Shown here: positions 16,722-46,140 of the stretch, piece by piece
Layout of the letters: each line of letters starts with the position of its first letter
Position numbering within the stretch: the stretch's first letter is position 1
DNA from: a virus
Lineage: Duplodnaviria; Caudoviricetes
Direction: 5' to 3' (one strand)
DNA: 64,000 nucleotides
Virus record (IMG/VR): IMGVR_UViG_3300043077_000092
Program-made: the position numbers and the translations under genes
The notes under the pieces: generated by a model
What the model was told of the DNA's origin: nothing
Seen by the model: only the letters and a program-made list of their open reading frames with translations
Database searches by the model: none

Positions 16722-17741
16722 TTAAACGATGGTGAAACCTGTTCCATCCATCTTGTTCGAGAAAATTTGCTTTTCGATGTTTTGCAATGAGAAACCTTTG
16801 TTGTCATTGGCAACCTGTTTCTTTGCGAGGGCACCGATATCCTCATCATTGATTTTGAGCTTGTCGGATCTTCTCCGACATTGAAGAATTATTTTTTCCT
16901 GTTTTTTAAGTATGTCCTTTTTCTGCTGTGCAGATTTGTTCGATGCTTGAACACCGAGTTTGTTGAGTTCGAGGAAATCCGCCTGCATATCTAAATAGTC
17001 AGACAGTTGTACCCTCGTTCTGTAATAAAAATAGATGAGCTCCCTTGTAATCGGAACAATGGAAACCAATGCCGTGATGACAATCCCAGTGATAACAACT
17101 CCAGTTCCAGTGAAATTTTTCCTCTGGGCATCTAACAAATAGTTCGCCATCGTTTCAAAGTGACCCACCTTAACTTCCCCATTAAATCTCTGAAGATTAT
17201 CCAACGAAATCCTCCCACGACCCTTGTCGTTCTTTGACTTAACGGTATCGTACTGAGACTGCTCGGGTCCCAATAGATAATTCATGTAGTCGGCGATAAT
17301 CATTGACGTTGCGTCGATAACCGCCATTACGATTGTGTTATAAAACAAAATCAAATAATCTTGTTTTAACTGGAAAGCTAACTCGAAAGTTGGCTTAAAT
17401 CGTTTGATATTTGCGACTGATTCTTTCACAATATCAACGTCTGTTGTCGGAACCGCATTCTTAACCATAAGTTCCGTAAGTACATCTAAACTTTCCTGCG
17501 TTGACTTGTAATATTTACATTTGGCGATATCACCCTTTGAGTCAGGAATATCTCCAAAATCGCAATCTTTTCTGTCCAATACGCTCTTATAGAGCTCTCT
17601 CACCAAGGTACCGTTTACCTGATGGATATCATCCTTATTCATACCCTGAATATACTTCTTATCTTCGGGAGTAGATGCTTCCGTTACGATAGAAGATACC
17701 TTTACAATATCAGGGTACCAACTTCTGCTTGTCATCATCAC
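16722..17741 (-). CDS. Putative virion structural protein
   Basis: 339 aa in the late minus-strand operon; VTEA motif near the N-terminus; one hydrophobic stretch (GVVITGIVITALVSIVPI). Confidence 0.55.
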   Translation of the reverse strand: MMMTSRSWYPDIVKVSSIVTEASTPEDKKYIQGMNKDDIHQVNGTLVRELYKSVLDRKDCDFGDIPDSKGDIAKCKYYKSTQESLDVLTELMVKNAVPTTDVDIVKESVANIKRFKPTFELAFQLKQDYLILFYNTIVMAVIDATSMIIADYMNYLLGPEQSQYDTVKSKNDKGRGRISLDNLQRFNGEVKVGHFETMANYLLDAQRKNFTGTGVVITGIVITALVSIVPITRELIYFYYRTRVQLSDYLDMQADFLELNKLGVQASNKSAQQKKDILKKQEKIILQCRRRSDKLKINDEDIGALAKKQVANDNKGFSLQNIEKQIFSNKMDGTGFTIV

Positions 17742-19162
17742 ATACTCCTTCCTAACATCTTCATCATGTTCTTAAATGCTTTATCATCGCTCTGATTCTC
17801 CCTGCGGAGCGTATCATAAGTGTAGGTATCAGTTGTTTCAATACCATCGAACCTGAAAGTTGCTCTCTGAGTAACAGGGTTTACAACGATATATCCGAGC
17901 AAAAAATAAACGTCCATCATTCTATTGATGATACGTTCATCGGATAAGTCATATCCATAGGTATCTCTGATATACTCGATAGTCGGCTGAGATATAACCA
18001 AAGAAGCATTTGGTAAAATGGAGTTCTTTGATACGTGAAGAGCCGATCTCGATGCATTCTTTCTTCTCTTTAATGCAGGTCTCCAACCGGTTACATCATT
18101 ACCAGCATCTTTTGCATCCATCTTAATGGTATCGATGGCAAATAAGAAATCCTTAAAGAATTTAATCTCGCCAGTTGTCCAACGAATAAAATTGAACACG
18201 ACGTTTTCATTACGCATACCTGCAACTGTCATACGGACAATCTCATCAACTGGAATTGGATGAAGAGTTGCCTTTACACCCATGATGAAATCAATCGGAG
18301 TAAGTTCCTCTCTTGTATATTTATCGATAGGATAAACTCTGATATGAAGAAGGGTCGGGACTAAGTCGTTTGCCTTCTTGCAGTCATTATCCGTGAGAGG
18401 TTTCCACTGAGCACCTCTGTCTCTAACATTCTGCTTTATAGCAGCCTGTTGTTTCGTTTCGGGCATTTTGTTTGTAACATTGACCGTTGGAGTGACATTA
18501 ACGTTGTTATTGGTTGTATGACGTCTGTCATTTACAACTGCGTTAGGACTTTCGACCTTAACATCTCCACCGCCAGTGTTGAGATTTGCAACAGCCGTAC
18601 GCTTATCGACAAACGTATCAGCTTCCATAGTAGGTGCTGAAATACGAAAACGATCGTTTAACGTATAAGGGGTTGTAACCTCTTCAATTGTATAGTTACA
18701 GCGAACGTTAATATCCTGCGGTATTGAACGAGCTACCCCTTCATAGATTGCAGTTGCCAGACGAAACGCTTCACTCTCCATTGCGGTGTACTCAACATCT
18801 GTTGACTCATTGATGAAATCGGTCAGACTAATGTGAAGACCTTTCGTAGCATCTTTCACACGTATATTCTGATGGAACTGTTTCAAATAATCAGCAGCGT
18901 TAGGTGTCTCACCCTTTGTCACCTCAAGGTAAGGTTCCATGGTAAGTACCGTCAATAAGAATGATGCGAATTTCTTTTCTGCTGCTCTTGAGATGAGCAG
19001 ACTGTCATCTATGGGAGTAGAATCATCTACCAATACAGGGAAGTTTGCTGTACCTTCCATTGCAGATGCAGAAATTGAACGTTTGGTGCTATAGATACCT
19101 GCTGATGCAGCAGTTGCTTTAAGCTCTGTTAAAGTGTCAATAGCATCTCTAATTTCGCCCAT
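17738..19162 (-). CDS. Putative virion structural protein
   Basis: 474 aa; INES/AMES/TMEA motifs; late promoter AACA-N6-TA at 19192-19203. Confidence 0.55.
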   Translation of the reverse strand: MGEIRDAIDTLTELKATAASAGIYSTKRSISASAMEGTANFPVLVDDSTPIDDSLLISRAAEKKFASFLLTVLTMEPYLEVTKGETPNAADYLKQFHQNIRVKDATKGLHISLTDFINESTDVEYTAMESEAFRLATAIYEGVARSIPQDINVRCNYTIEEVTTPYTLNDRFRISAPTMEADTFVDKRTAVANLNTGGGDVKVESPNAVVNDRRHTTNNNVNVTPTVNVTNKMPETKQQAAIKQNVRDRGAQWKPLTDNDCKKANDLVPTLLHIRVYPIDKYTREELTPIDFIMGVKATLHPIPVDEIVRMTVAGMRNENVVFNFIRWTTGEIKFFKDFLFAIDTIKMDAKDAGNDVTGWRPALKRRKNASRSALHVSKNSILPNASLVISQPTIEYIRDTYGYDLSDERIINRMMDVYFLLGYIVVNPVTQRATFRFDGIETTDTYTYDTLRRENQSDDKAFKNMMKMLGRSM

Positions 19163-19255
19163 AATTTATTTCACCTCTTTCTATATAATATTAATCTTTT
19201 GTTCCATACGTTAAAATAGAAGCAACCTAAATACTCACTATATAAATATACAAAA

Positions 19256-19297
19256 AAAATATAGAGGGGTGACTTTAATCATCTCCCTCTATATTTT
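19256..19297 (-). terminator. Bidirectional terminator closing hairpin-peptide module A
   Basis: AAAATATAGAGGG..CCCTCTATATTTT inverted repeat. Confidence 0.75.
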
Positions 19298-19324
19298 TAA
19301 TAATTAATGACGTATCTTAATACA

Positions 19325-19537
19325 CTAAGATAATGCATTCAATATGAATCGCATATCCCGAGAAAATGATTCGGGGTCATCATTAATGTGAGCACGGTTA
19401 TATTCGTACTCACTCATGAAACTTTTGGTCGTGGTCGGACTTCGAGTTTCACGATATTGGTTCTGGGAAATCAGAGATCCTGGAACAACACCAACAACAG
19501 AGTTGTTGATATTACCAAATAGATGGTCAGTTATCAT
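19325..19537 (-). CDS. Small peptide, hairpin-module family copy A (70 aa)
   Basis: RBS GAAAGGAGGTGA; paralogous to the 43501, 43845 and 45908 ORFs; synonymous substitutions relative to copy D support coding. Confidence 0.8.
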   Translation of the reverse strand: MITDHLFGNINNSVVGVVPGSLISQNQYRETRSPTTTKSFMSEYEYNRAHINDDPESFSRDMRFILNALS

Positions 19538-19584
19538 ATTAGGTCACCTCCTTTCATGATAACTGACCGTTTGTTGTTTCTAGG

Positions 19585-19767
19585 TTACAAGCGAAATACT
19601 CTATCACTGTTATTCAACCAATTTCGCACTTCATCGGCTGAATGAAATAACTCATCTTCAGATACGTTACAGGCTCTTGCAAGTCTGATGCTGTCTTCCA
19701 AGGATACATTCTTTGGGTCGATTGAGTTTAGTATAGTTTCTACTTTATCAAAATTAATATTTGACAT
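19585..19767 (-). CDS. Small protein resembling the C-terminal helices of an XRE-type HTH
   Basis: SLEDSIRLARACNVSEDELF; ATG 19767 after GGAGG; early-type TATATTA at 19815-19821. Confidence 0.5.
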   Translation of the reverse strand: MSNINFDKVETILNSIDPKNVSLEDSIRLARACNVSEDELFHSADEVRNWLNNSDRVFRL

Positions 19768-19890
19768 ATTCATTACCTCCATTAGAACGGTTTACTTGTT
19801 TCCATATAAGTATTTAATATAGTAATGAATATTTACACAATAAGAATTTCCCATATCGATACAAAAAAATAGAAGGTGGGACAAACTGAG

Positions 19891-19936
19891 ATAGATAGGT
19901 AAGAACTATAGTTACATCAAGTTCTTACCTATCTAT
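19891..19936. repeat. 17-bp perfect inverted repeat (terminator or other hairpin)
   Basis: ATAGATAGGTAAGAACT / AGTTCTTACCTATCTAT. Confidence 0.7.
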
Positions 19937-20074
19937 TATTTTACGGAATCCCATGAATCCAATTGACTTCATGATACTTACAAATTACAAGTATATCCGC
20001 CCAGTTCTTAACTAACTCCTAATATTCCCATTAAAATAACTTACATAAACTTCTTCCTTCTATATTAAAACATT

Positions 20075-20398
20075 TTAGATGTTAAATAAACCACTGAGAA
20101 TCCCCCCAATAGCATTAATTACGCTATCCCCATTTGCTATTGTTGTATTATTTTCCGTGTTTTTTACTACCCTATCATCATTGAGAACTTGCGACCGAGC
20201 ATCCACCGATACGTTATAAGTAAGCGATAAATTTACTGGTCCCTCCCCAAGTACAGTAATACATGATGTCGGAAAATTGATATGAGTTCGGATCTCATTT
20301 CCCTCACGACGAACTGATATAATCTCAGAGTTATCAACCTCTTTTAAATCTGAACTAGTTTGCGCCAATGTTGCACGCTCTGAAATATCATTGGGCAT
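20075..20398 (-). CDS. Hypothetical protein
   Basis: 107 aa with RBS GAGAGG. Confidence 0.7.
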   Translation of the reverse strand: MPNDISERATLAQTSSDLKEVDNSEIISVRREGNEIRTHINFPTSCITVLGEGPVNLSLTYNVSVDARSQVLNDDRVVKNTENNTTIANGDSVINAIGGILSGLFNI

Positions 20399-43440: not shown

Positions 43441-43448
43441 ATATATTA
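43441..43448 (+). promoter_or_regulatory. Early-type phage promoter core ATATATTA (representative of 7 copies)
   Basis: Recurs upstream of non-structural genes; resembles the phiKZ early promoter core TATATTAC. Confidence 0.6.
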
Positions 43449-43500
43449 GATATGAGTAAGCAAAGAAAGATTGGCTTACCAAGAAAGGAGGTGAATCCTC

Positions 43501-43707
43501 ATGGCAAACCAAAAAGGGTTTGGTAACACGGCATCATTACCGTGTTACCAACCAGTCAACACCCAACCTAGTTGGGTACATGGATATCCGAGCACCAATC
43601 GGACGTTCATGGATGAGTACGAATCACATCGTGCTCATGTTAATGACAACCCTGAGATGTTTGCACGAGACGTAAGTGTCATTATGAACTTACTGAGTGC
43701 AATGTAG
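43501..43707 (+). CDS. Small peptide, hairpin-module family copy B (68 aa)
   Basis: RBS GAAAGGAGGTGA; RTFMDEYESHRAHVNDNPEMFARDVSVIMNLLS; early-type ATATATTA at 43441-43448. Confidence 0.8.
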   Translation: MANQKGFGNTASLPCYQPVNTQPSWVHGYPSTNRTFMDEYESHRAHVNDNPEMFARDVSVIMNLLSAM

Positions 43708-43766: not shown

Positions 43767-43844
43767 GTGTAAAGCAACTTTGTTTATTATAAAGTTCATA
43801 GATAAAAAACAATGCTGATTTGACAATAGAGGAGGTGATTCCTT

Positions 43845-44090
43845 ATGGCAAACCAGCATTGTTGTGATAATGGTGGCATGTACCATTACCAAGTTCGTAC
43901 ATCTCCCAGTTATGGGAATCATAGATATTCGAGCACCACCGATCGAACATTCTTAGATAAATACGAATATGCGTCTTATCTTGAACGCATTACTGTAATG
44001 TATCATGAATTTCACAAAATTAAGAATGGGTGGGTAACTTCGGTTCCCACCCATTTTTTTGTATTACTATTTCGGATTTCAACCTACTAG
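43845..44090 (+). CDS. Hairpin-module family copy C, probably degenerate
   Basis: MANQ start and STTDRTFLDKYE match copy B, but the conserved C-terminus is lost and the frame runs through the terminator at 44025-44060. Confidence 0.5.
   Translation: MANQHCCDNGGMYHYQVRTSPSYGNHRYSSTTDRTFLDKYEYASYLERITVMYHEFHKIKNGWVTSVPTHFFVLLFRISTY
44025..44060 (+). terminator. Intrinsic terminator closing module C
   Basis: AATGGGTGGG / CCCACCCATT followed by a T-tract. Confidence 0.75.
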
Positions 44091-44165
44091 ACAATCTGCA
44101 AATATATTAATTATATAGGATACAGAAACCACGGAATCTTAAATATAAAAGAGGAGGTAAGATAT

Positions 44166-45866: not shown

Positions 45867-45907
45867 AAATAAACAAGTGATCAGTAAATTGAAAGGAGGT
45901 GATTCCT

Positions 45908-46117
45908 ATGATTACTGATCACTTGTTTAGTGATCCCAACAAGACAAGTCTTGTTGGGTCGGTTCCATACTCAATGAGTAATAGGAACCAGCGTCATGAT
46001 ACTCGGTCCCCAGATTTGAGTTTCATGACAGGGTATGAGTCTAATCGTGCCCGAATAAGTGATAATCCCGAAGCATTTTCTCGGGATATGCGTTTCATAC
46101 TAAACGCATTATCTTAA
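45908..46117 (+). CDS. Small peptide, hairpin-module family copy D (69 aa)
   Basis: ATG 45908 after GAAAGGAGGTGA; MITDHLF..FSRDMRFILNALS ends identical to copy A. Confidence 0.8.
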   Translation: MITDHLFSDPNKTSLVGSVPYSMSNRNQRHDTRSPDLSFMTGYESNRARISDNPEAFSRDMRFILNALS

Positions 46118-46140
46118 TGTATTAAGGTATATCACAATTT

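Follow-up and report, generated by a model that had tools for sequence, protein, structure and literature searches.

A start-site palindrome of small peptide genes in an AR9-like jumbo phage: a candidate RNA hairpin for both strands

Introduction

Why would a gene with one of the strongest ribosome-binding sites of its genome bury its own start codon in a stable hairpin? The question is raised by four small peptide genes, A to D, in a stretch of 64,000 nucleotides (nt) of a tailed phage (hereafter the window), which is the minus strand of positions 54913-118912 in a 220,062-base pair (bp) IMG/VR virus record with an estimated completeness of 93%. A palindrome of about 60 nt surrounds the ribosome-binding site of these genes. 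The initial annotation had read it as a lock on translation in cis and/or as the end of an antisense RNA, in the manner of type I toxin-antitoxin loci. The comparison of all family members now suggests that the palindrome may be a selected RNA hairpin read on both strands, at the heart of a mini-gene cassette that would be switched on early and off late in infection, a reading to which we give slightly less than an even chance.

Architecture of the start-site palindrome

The genome holds seven copies of the peptide gene, A-D inside the window and E, F and G outside. The genes of the window, with lengths in amino acids (aa), and their palindromes are as follows.

19325..19537, minus strand: peptide gene A, 70 aa, hydrophilic, with the conserved C-terminal motif
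19518..19582, minus strand: start-site palindrome of module A (sense 5' arm 19556-19568, loop 19538-19555, 3' arm 19525-19537)
43501..43707, plus strand: peptide gene B, 68 aa
43471..43512, plus strand: start-site palindrome of module B (arms 43471-43481 and 43502-43512)
43845..43998, plus strand: peptide gene C, a decayed copy in which the middle of the conserved C-terminal domain is deleted
43808..43863, plus strand: start-site palindrome of module C (arms 43808-43825 and 43846-43863)
45908..46117, plus strand: peptide gene D, 69 aa
45860..45929, plus strand: start-site palindrome of module D (arms 45870-45887 and 45912-45929; ATG at 45908-45910)

Every arm quoted in the initial annotation is found in the four modules, including the perfect stems of A (19525-19537/19556-19568, 13 bp) and D (18 bp). 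In A, C and D, the upstream arm faces the start codon and codons 2-7, yielding stems of 13-18 bp with energies of -22 to -28 kcal/mol. The ATG of module A (19537-19535) is located inside the sense 3' arm, and the loop holds a 12-nt Shine-Dalgarno sequence. The stem of this module is prolonged by an extension (19518-19524/19569-19575) that pairs only on the antisense (+) strand, as three A.C oppositions of the sense strand are G.U pairs on the antisense strand. The stem of module C assembles 16 Watson-Crick pairs, one A.C and one A.G, while the element of module D starts 3 nt past the stop codon of an ABC-transporter gene. When segments of 91 nt are folded, the modules A, C and D reach energies between -24 and -31 kcal/mol on either strand (z-scores between -3 and -6.7).

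Module B is a different case. Its stem, formed of nine Watson-Crick pairs and two A.C, has a weak -9.2 kcal/mol in the sense orientation, against a stable -19.1 kcal/mol in the antisense one. The minimum-energy fold of the sense strand is instead the upstream stem GTAAGC/GCTTAC, already noticed as an alternative, whereas the antisense fold forms the start-site hairpin. The pairing of an upstream arm with the first codons, claimed for all four modules, thus holds for A, C and D and is weak in B.

The overall shape of the hairpin comprises a lower stem, an internal loop and a short upper stem. The Shine-Dalgarno sequence does lie in the loop, as proposed, yet it is not freely exposed: in most copies, its AGGA pairs with UCCU directly 5' of the AUG. 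The AUG or codons 2-5 are predicted to be unpaired with a probability of only 0.00-0.15 in all copies in which the 3' arm is the start of the gene (type I, see below), including A, C and D, for which a cis lock of the start codon is therefore predicted by folding. Such closure is not predicted for B, nor for E, F and the homologue P0008; the lock on translation that had been put forward for the four modules would be a property of three.

The strength of these hairpins stands out in the genome. An ungapped pairing score between the region upstream of the Shine-Dalgarno sequence and the start-codon region, run on 272 crude open reading frames (ORFs) of the genome, ranks D, A, C and E as the top four (36, 34, 29 and 27), for a median of 12 and a 95th percentile of 18. 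Copies F and B are also within the top 13.

Covariation of the two arms in homologues

A profile search of 1.8 billion representative proteins identifies about 15 more small proteins with the same C-terminal motif, and flanking DNA was obtained for 11 of them. Five of these 11 keep the same kind of palindrome, with arm sequences that are wholly different and track their own N-termini:

P0009, N-terminus MITNRLF: perfect stem of 19 bp
P0010, N-terminus MANTLIW: perfect stem of 17 bp
P0021, N-terminus MSNDHLF: perfect stem of 20 bp
P0017, N-terminus MATTLKW: stem of at least 12 bp (contig end)
L019, N-terminus MANTFKW: stem of 12 bp plus 4 more, two of them G.U

In an alignment of D, A, P0009, P0021 and a close relative of D, 10 of the 18 stem pairs are changed on both sides. 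None of 500 shuffles reaches this value, and sliding the partner by 1-3 columns leaves 0-1 such pairs. Since these controls do not approach the observed count of compensatory pairs, the start-site hairpin is, as judged from covariation, real and under selection. The earlier remark that the upstream arm changes with the N-terminal codons is borne out by the same figures, different arms matching different N-termini. The covariation is almost wholly of the Watson-Crick type, and the stem length clusters at 17-20 bp. The three homologues with perfect stems (P0009, P0010 and P0021) are distant ones and stem from metagenomes other than that of the phage.

The sense strand: early-promoter-like motif, leaders and Shine-Dalgarno sequences

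The motif TATATTA(A/T)-N6 sits 30-60 nt ahead of many gene starts. It matches the early consensus of the Bacillus jumbo phage AR9, TATATTAT-N6-G, also written AAATATATATTAT-N6-G(+1) (PMC5312081), and the promoter grammar of the phage is, at the level of such motifs, AR9-like. To note, the form (A/C)TATATTA(A/T) is found 30-60 nt before approximately 29 gene starts genome-wide, for example at 44100-44165 of the window, upstream of the ABC gene. In module B, such a motif is located as follows:

43442..43461, plus strand: early-promoter-like motif of module B (TATATTAG at 43442-43449), with a predicted +1 at G43456

G43456 is the first base of a 5'-terminal stem, in which GTAAGC (43456-43461) has GCTTAC (43474-43479) as its partner. 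The arrangement is general: in all 11 members endowed with an early motif, the predicted +1 is located 0-5 nt before a hairpin.

Two leader designs are found in the family. In type I leaders (A, C, D, P0009, P0010, P0021, L019 and P0017), the 3' arm of the hairpin is the start of the ORF. Type II leaders (B, E, F, G, P0008, P0011, P0012, P0013, P0018 and two more small genes of contig L013) possess a separate 5'-terminal stem upstream of the Shine-Dalgarno sequence. This stem covaries as well (for example, GGTAAGC/GCTTACC versus TACTCAGA/TCTGAGTA), and in two homologues (L013:125 and P0011) it contains G.U pairs that form on the sense strand only. Seven members harbor the 5'-terminal stem alone, without a start-site palindrome. 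An alignment shows homology between the 5' arm of C and the leaders of B, E, F and P0008, which have an added upstream stem. The hairpins of A, D and P0010 lie inside the predicted transcript, away from its 5' end.

The three longest Shine-Dalgarno matches among the 272 ORFs belong to the family; they are perfectly complementary to a Bacillus-type 16S tail over 12-13 nt, with a calculated duplex energy of -22 kcal/mol. They read GAAAGGAGGTGA(T/A/C) at 19538-19555, 43483-43500 and 45888-45907 of the window. As these are the longest matches to the complement of the 16S tail, the antisense loop is a near-copy of the 16S 3' end. The rest of the message is structured too: the mRNA of the clade whose peptides start with MITDHLF is tiled with covarying hairpins and folds at -86.6 kcal/mol in the sense orientation versus -75.7 kcal/mol in the antisense one, its ORF hairpins counting 26 sense G.U cells versus 13 A.C cells. 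In D, P0010, L019 and A, an upstream stop codon precedes the arm by 3-16 nt. Among the possible routes to the translation of a locked type I mRNA, the ribosome may load on the very long Shine-Dalgarno sequence during transcription or, alternatively, the base of the stem may be melted by a ribosome terminating 3-16 nt upstream, in D, P0010 and A.

The antisense strand: a late-promoter-like motif at the stop codon

The late promoters of AR9 follow the consensus AACA-N6-T(A/G) (PMC5312081). Upstream of the gene starts of the present genome, AACA-N6-T(A/G) is observed 30 times for 12 expected and CACA-N6-T(A/G) 21 times for 3.1 expected; TACA-N6-T(A/G) is weakly enriched (26 for 15.1) and GACA-N6-T(A/G) is not. 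No enrichment is seen there with spacings of 5 or 7. As the enrichment is restricted to the 6-nt spacing, the late grammar deduced for this genome matches the AR9 consensus. The CACA or AACA forms precede structural genes genome-wide, the enrichment of CACA exceeding that of the AR9 consensus.

The same motif is present on the opposite strand of the peptide genes, at their stop codon:

19321..19332, plus strand: late-promoter-like TACA-N6-TA, antisense to A, predicted start 19332, 8 nt inside the stop-codon end
43991..44002, minus strand: late-promoter-like TACA-N6-TA, antisense to C, predicted start 43991, with the offset from the ancestral stop seen in A and D
46110..46121, minus strand: late-promoter-like TACA-N6-TA, antisense to D, predicted start 46110

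The strict AACA form alone gives few antisense matches, and its first base was relaxed to N only after the enrichment test. Counted as NACA-N6-T(A/G), provided that its predicted start is no more than about 20 nt away from the stop codon, the motif is found in 11 of 19 members versus 12 of 268 other ORFs (about 4.5%), for a p of ~1e-10, or ~2e-5 when counted by clade; the other small ORFs with the motif are mostly artefacts of the crude ORF caller. Its offset is -8 in A, C, D and F (all TACA), P0008 (AACA) and P0021 (CACA), -5 in P0010 (CACA) and L019 (TACA), -3 in P0013 (AACA), +3 in P0009 (TACA) and +19 in E (TACA). Because these offsets shift with the local sequence, the motif is not simply inherited, and its maintenance despite changing position and surroundings argues for selection on it. 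From these putative starts, the RNAs antisense to A and D would each be about 250 nt long up to the palindrome, spanning 19332 to about 19575 (plus strand) and 46110 to about 45863 (minus strand), respectively. The initial annotation had reported no convincing antisense promoter. This is confirmed for promoters of the sigma-70 type, a scan for which yields antisense matches at chance level only, and revised by the late-promoter-like motif.

Several observations bear on the surroundings of this motif. At 46110-46125 and 19317-19332 of the window, the stop codon falls within a small hairpin that covaries (TCTTAA/TTAAGG around TGTA, for example), and the ACA of the motif comes from the hairpin loop; here, structure and motif are inseparable by sequence alone. 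Of the 139 tracts of T6 or more in the whole genome, 50 continue with GT (28 with GTA), and the terminators of the phage seem to end in T6GT. Read on the opposite strand, T6GT is ACA-A6 and can mimic the late motif; terminator tails account in this way for NACA-A6-T(A/G) matches at +44 to +57. Lastly, an unrelated 66-aa gene outside the window (G000:C1:163750-164062) displays an antisense AACA-N6-TA at its stop codon and a 14-bp hairpin just upstream of its Shine-Dalgarno sequence, followed by a U-rich segment on the antisense strand; it may be a second example of this layout.

The antisense strand: a terminator-like hairpin

In each of the 12 copies that have a palindrome, the stem read on the antisense strand has an energy between -19 and -29.5 kcal/mol. 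At least four consecutive U follow within 10 nt of the stem in 7 of 11 hairpins, versus 6.2% of control windows. The U-rich antisense tails of the initial annotation are genuine in D (UUUUUAG, 45869 down to 45863) and C (U6, 43807 down to about 43798) and interrupted in A (GUUUCUAGG) and B. A terminator on the sense strand was rejected, the sense tails not being U-rich.

Palindrome and antisense motif co-occur: the motif is present in 10 of 12 members with a palindrome versus 1 of 7 without (Fisher p = 0.006). B lacks the motif as well as a good tail, and its antisense stem is the weakest of all. The sense helices of B, E, F and P0008 amount to only -9 to -16 kcal/mol, their non-Watson-Crick positions being A.C, while the antisense helices (-19 to -29 kcal/mol) are as strong as in type I.

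The choice of mismatches carries further information on the strand under selection. Type I stems count no sense G.U in 70 cells (2 in 133 over all type I) versus 26 in 264 in the ORF hairpins of the same mRNAs, a deficit with p = 0.002 and 0.001, respectively. The non-Watson-Crick pairs tolerated in the stems of A and C are A.C only. A helix needed on both transcripts would show precisely this absence of sense G.U pairs, and the counts fit such a need.

A proposed hairpin for two transcripts

These features may be combined in the following scheme. Transcription of the cassette would start early, from an AR9-type promoter belonging to the gene itself or to an upstream gene. In the resulting mRNA, the upstream arm is predicted in silico to fold on the AUG and codons 2-7 and to leave in the loop a Shine-Dalgarno sequence of 12-15 nt, matching the Bacillus-type 16S rRNA tail over its full length; this would cap the 5' end and occlude the start codon. 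Late in infection, the second phage RNA polymerase would start at the NACA-N6-T(A/G) motif over the stop codon and transcribe back across the entire ORF to the mirror-image hairpin and its U-tract. These would end the RNA and shield its 3' end just beyond the ribosome-binding site, so that the upstream gene would not be silenced. Covering both the Shine-Dalgarno sequence and the AUG, the antisense RNA would switch off the early message; the complementarity between its apical loop (AUCACC) and the sense loop (GGUGAU) offers a possible entry point for loop-loop contact.

B, E, F and P0008 would show which half of this device is retained: the sense helix has been opened by A.C oppositions and by a competing 5'-terminal stem, and the antisense helix would be kept by the corresponding G.U pairs. 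As start-codon occlusion and 5' capping are lost in these four, they would be real and dispensable; the conserved core function would be to provide a late antisense RNA, overlapping the ribosome-binding site, with its 3' hairpin and terminator, a view that we hold at slightly less than even odds. The full scheme, in which a single palindrome made from the first codons of the gene serves two transcripts of two phage RNA polymerases, as early lock and 5' cap and then as late terminator and kissing hairpin, and would act as an RNA timer for early mini-proteins in AR9-like jumbo phages, is put forward tentatively, as a possibility with distinctly less than an even chance. Under it, covariation restricted to Watson-Crick pairs would be the signature of selection on two strands.

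A number of facts weigh against the two-transcript scheme. The antisense loops measure 18-24 nt, and are reduced to 4-6 nt only through an inner stem of 3-4 bp; the bases of the stems are A/U-rich, where intrinsic terminators have short loops (3-8 nt) and G+C-rich bases. A consensus terminator scan does not call the antisense hairpins, and the phage's own terminators, with short loops and T6GT tails, do not resemble the palindromes. The antisense tail is A-rich in P0021, poor in P0009 and interrupted in A and B, and about half of the antisense motifs are of the weak TACA form. A lock of -25 kcal/mol is hard to reconcile with the expression of a gene that has the strongest Shine-Dalgarno sequence of the genome, and the sense strand clearly requires a 5' hairpin of its own. 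The argument that A.C mismatches on the sense strand are G.U pairs on the antisense strand is correct as to its counts (three in A, two in B, one in C) and weaker than initially thought: over the family, the asymmetry is about 9 A.C versus 3 G.U events (p = 0.07), the L019 palindrome has two G.U pairs favoring the sense strand, and the asymmetry is not decisive because transitions selected only for loosening the sense lock would likewise produce A.C. Finally, the family members are related, and the counts given above are not independent. The antisense terminator initially proposed is supported by the late motif, the U-tract and the strong antisense hairpins; the wide loops, two poor tails and the sense strand's need for its own hairpin speak against it.

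Alternative explanations

The main competitor requires the sense strand only. The hairpin would belong to a nuclease-resistant, hairpin-tiled early mRNA, guarding its 5' end, holding a ribosome on the long Shine-Dalgarno sequence in the manner of STAB-SD or aprE leaders, and gating initiation, for example by allowing one round during transcription or by opening after the ribosome of the upstream cistron has melted the stem base; the antisense motif and the U-tract would be by-products. We consider this rather unlikely, even if it accounts readily for much of the leader design: the predicted +1 that abuts a 5' hairpin in 11 of 11 cases, the seven members with a 5'-terminal stem and no palindrome, the sense-only G.U pairs in that stem (L013:125, P0011) and in the L019 palindrome, and the nearby upstream stops of D, P0010, L019 and A. 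The better folding of the whole mRNA in the sense orientation (-86.6 versus -75.7 kcal/mol) and the 26 G.U versus 13 A.C cells of the ORF hairpins go in the same direction, and stabilisation by strong Shine-Dalgarno sequences is established in Bacillus (PMC4113751, PMC5737220). It leaves unexplained, however, the avoidance by the stem of sense G.U pairs (0 of 70 cells), which are used in the neighbouring hairpins, the persistence of antisense pairing in B, E, F and P0008 after the loss of sense pairing, and the A-tract ahead of the arm. The promoter motif at the stop codon and its association with the palindrome are not accounted for either, and the hairpin of A, D and P0010, being internal to the transcript, is not placed to guard a 5' end.

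A second explanation sees in the 17-20 bp helix, stacked on the inner AGGA/UCCU stem, a double-strand processing site for the host RNase III, whose cut would either destroy the message or free a 3' product led by the Shine-Dalgarno sequence. Early mRNA of phage SP82 reportedly combines RNase III sites with a polypurine stabiliser. The nearly exclusive Watson-Crick covariation, the clustering of stem lengths and the succession of lower stem, internal loop and upper stem would suit such a site. Yet a staggered double cut would part the Shine-Dalgarno sequence from the ORF, the stem of A is only 13 bp long, B, E and F have no continuous sense helix, and no conserved cleavage motif is seen, which makes this explanation improbable.

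The least probable explanation places the function at the DNA level, where the palindrome would be an operator for a protein, would extrude as a cruciform or fold as a hairpin in single-strand DNA, or would be the recombination site by which cassettes move: their dispersal over five genome regions, the swapped order of the peptide gene and its 65-aa neighbour in a relative, and pairing of the Watson-Crick type alone are compatible with it, whereas spacers of 18-24 nt disfavor cruciforms, the tolerated A.C/G.U positions fit RNA and not DNA, and the arms are placed exactly against the Shine-Dalgarno sequence and the AUG. A common protein operator was rejected, the arm sequences being wholly different between copies.

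Comparison with known systems

The element is a variant of known antisense and hairpin control, and not a new category. In P22 sar/ant and R1 CopA/CopT, a short antisense RNA covers the ribosome-binding site of its target, and one DNA palindrome gives rise to complementary stem-loops on both RNAs, with loop-loop entry. In the present case, the antisense RNA would instead span the whole ORF (about 250 nt), it would be driven by the switch of phage RNA polymerase class whereas those of sar/ant and CopA/CopT are constitutive, and the first codons of the target itself make up its terminal hairpin.

The modules had been likened to type I toxin-antitoxin loci (ibs/Sib, hok/Sok, aapA1/IsoA1). These also associate a small ORF with an overlapping antisense RNA and with a primary mRNA whose structure closes it to translation, the closure and the antisense RNA being only predicted here. 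The likeness fails on the peptide: the products of the family are hydrophilic, 65-86 aa long and devoid of a membrane helix, with negative hydropathy averages, and as they lack the defining membrane-active feature, membership in this class does not hold. Moreover, the genes are present in seven copies in a jumbo phage of lytic type, and the antisense RNA is predicted to be late, temporal, and not a constitutive antidote.

The T4 genes e, soc, 49 and I-TevI share with the family a hairpin at the start site, the start being hidden in transcripts that read through early in infection (PMC3014915). Open transcripts of the T4 genes then come from a late promoter within the 5' arm (PMC3014915); the genes of the family have early promoters, with a predicted +1 before the arm. 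Such a T4-like internal late promoter was rejected by hand reading of A, C, D and P0021, in which no sense NACA-N6-T(A/G) occurs in or after the 5' arm.

The 5' stabilisers and STAB-SD elements of Bacillus (PMC4113751, PMC5737220) resemble the leaders of the family in having a stem within a few nt of the (here predicted) +1, followed by a strong 30S-binding sequence of the GAAAGGAGG type, and type II leaders fit this description well. They differ in that several copies here are inside longer transcripts. In palindrome copies, a stabiliser would also block initiation, because its 3' arm is the start of the ORF.

The closest experimental precedent is AR9, in which seven late promoters drive transcription antisense to phage genes, mostly late in infection (PMC5312081). 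The promoter grammar, early and late, is the same (PMC5312081), being predicted here from sequence alone. In contrast, the AR9 paper describes no terminator over a ribosome-binding site and no palindrome common to both transcripts (PMC5312081), and a protein search finds no homologue of the peptide in AR9.

The peptide family and its cassettes

The peptides (65-72 aa for the copies of this genome, up to 86 aa over the family) share the C-terminal motif FM.EYE..RAH...P..F.RD.RFI.NALS, while their N-terminal halves are variable and polar. Grand averages of hydropathy (GRAVY) of -0.54 to -0.73 and a top 19-residue Kyte-Doolittle window of 0.09-1.08 define them as hydrophilic and without a membrane helix. 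Searches of Pfam, PHROG and the PDB reveal no family, and the ESM Atlas search with the peptide returns sub-threshold matches only, with a low-confidence model. Neither DNA nor protein searches find relatives in cultured phages, scans of IMG/VR with protein patterns or a DNA pattern and of the GTDB genomes find none, and an Rfam scan of the window gives no match. The peptide motif is also matched in 4-5 tandem stretches of three larger proteins, P0014, P0015 and P0022 (312, 2336 and 885 aa), the first of which is an array of ENPSTFCRELLEDYENITAKLS repeats. Such proteins may match by chance, through low-complexity sequence, or may contain the domain in repeated form.

The cassettes are scattered over five genome regions; in the window, they are found among genes encoding virion proteins, a 3920-aa tail-type protein and an ABC exporter. 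Copy C (43845-44005) is a pseudogene-like remnant that has lost about 16 codons of the conserved domain with a change of frame, its ancestral end RLILNALL* being still legible at 43972-43998 in a different frame. The early-promoter motif of this copy has degenerated; retained are its hairpin, its antisense motif and the tail of U6. When 17738-20398 of the window is compared with a relative (L023:449-1784), the peptide gene and the adjoining 61-65-aa gene are in swapped order, bounded by the same genes encoding a 107-109-aa protein and a 474-aa virion protein. This suggests that mini-gene cassettes move as units. In another relative (L011:3690-3790), the ABC exporter gene is followed by a 16-bp palindrome flanked by A6/T6 around a 38-codon ORF, and not by a D-type peptide gene; it may be the remnant of a lost cassette, or merely a terminator.

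Implications

The peptide family has so far been unannotated. Given its seven copies, the strongest ribosome-binding sites of the genome and a conserved C-terminal motif, the peptide is probably an abundant early effector. As a method, counting G.U versus A.C positions in a palindrome, or noting the absence of both, can reveal which strand or strands are under structural selection. AR9-type jumbo phages rely on a switch between two multisubunit RNA polymerases, and how their early genes are shut off is poorly understood. If the scheme is true, a compact cassette with an early promoter for the sense strand, a late one converging on it from the antisense strand and a palindrome common to both transcripts would constitute a simple and portable shut-off device.

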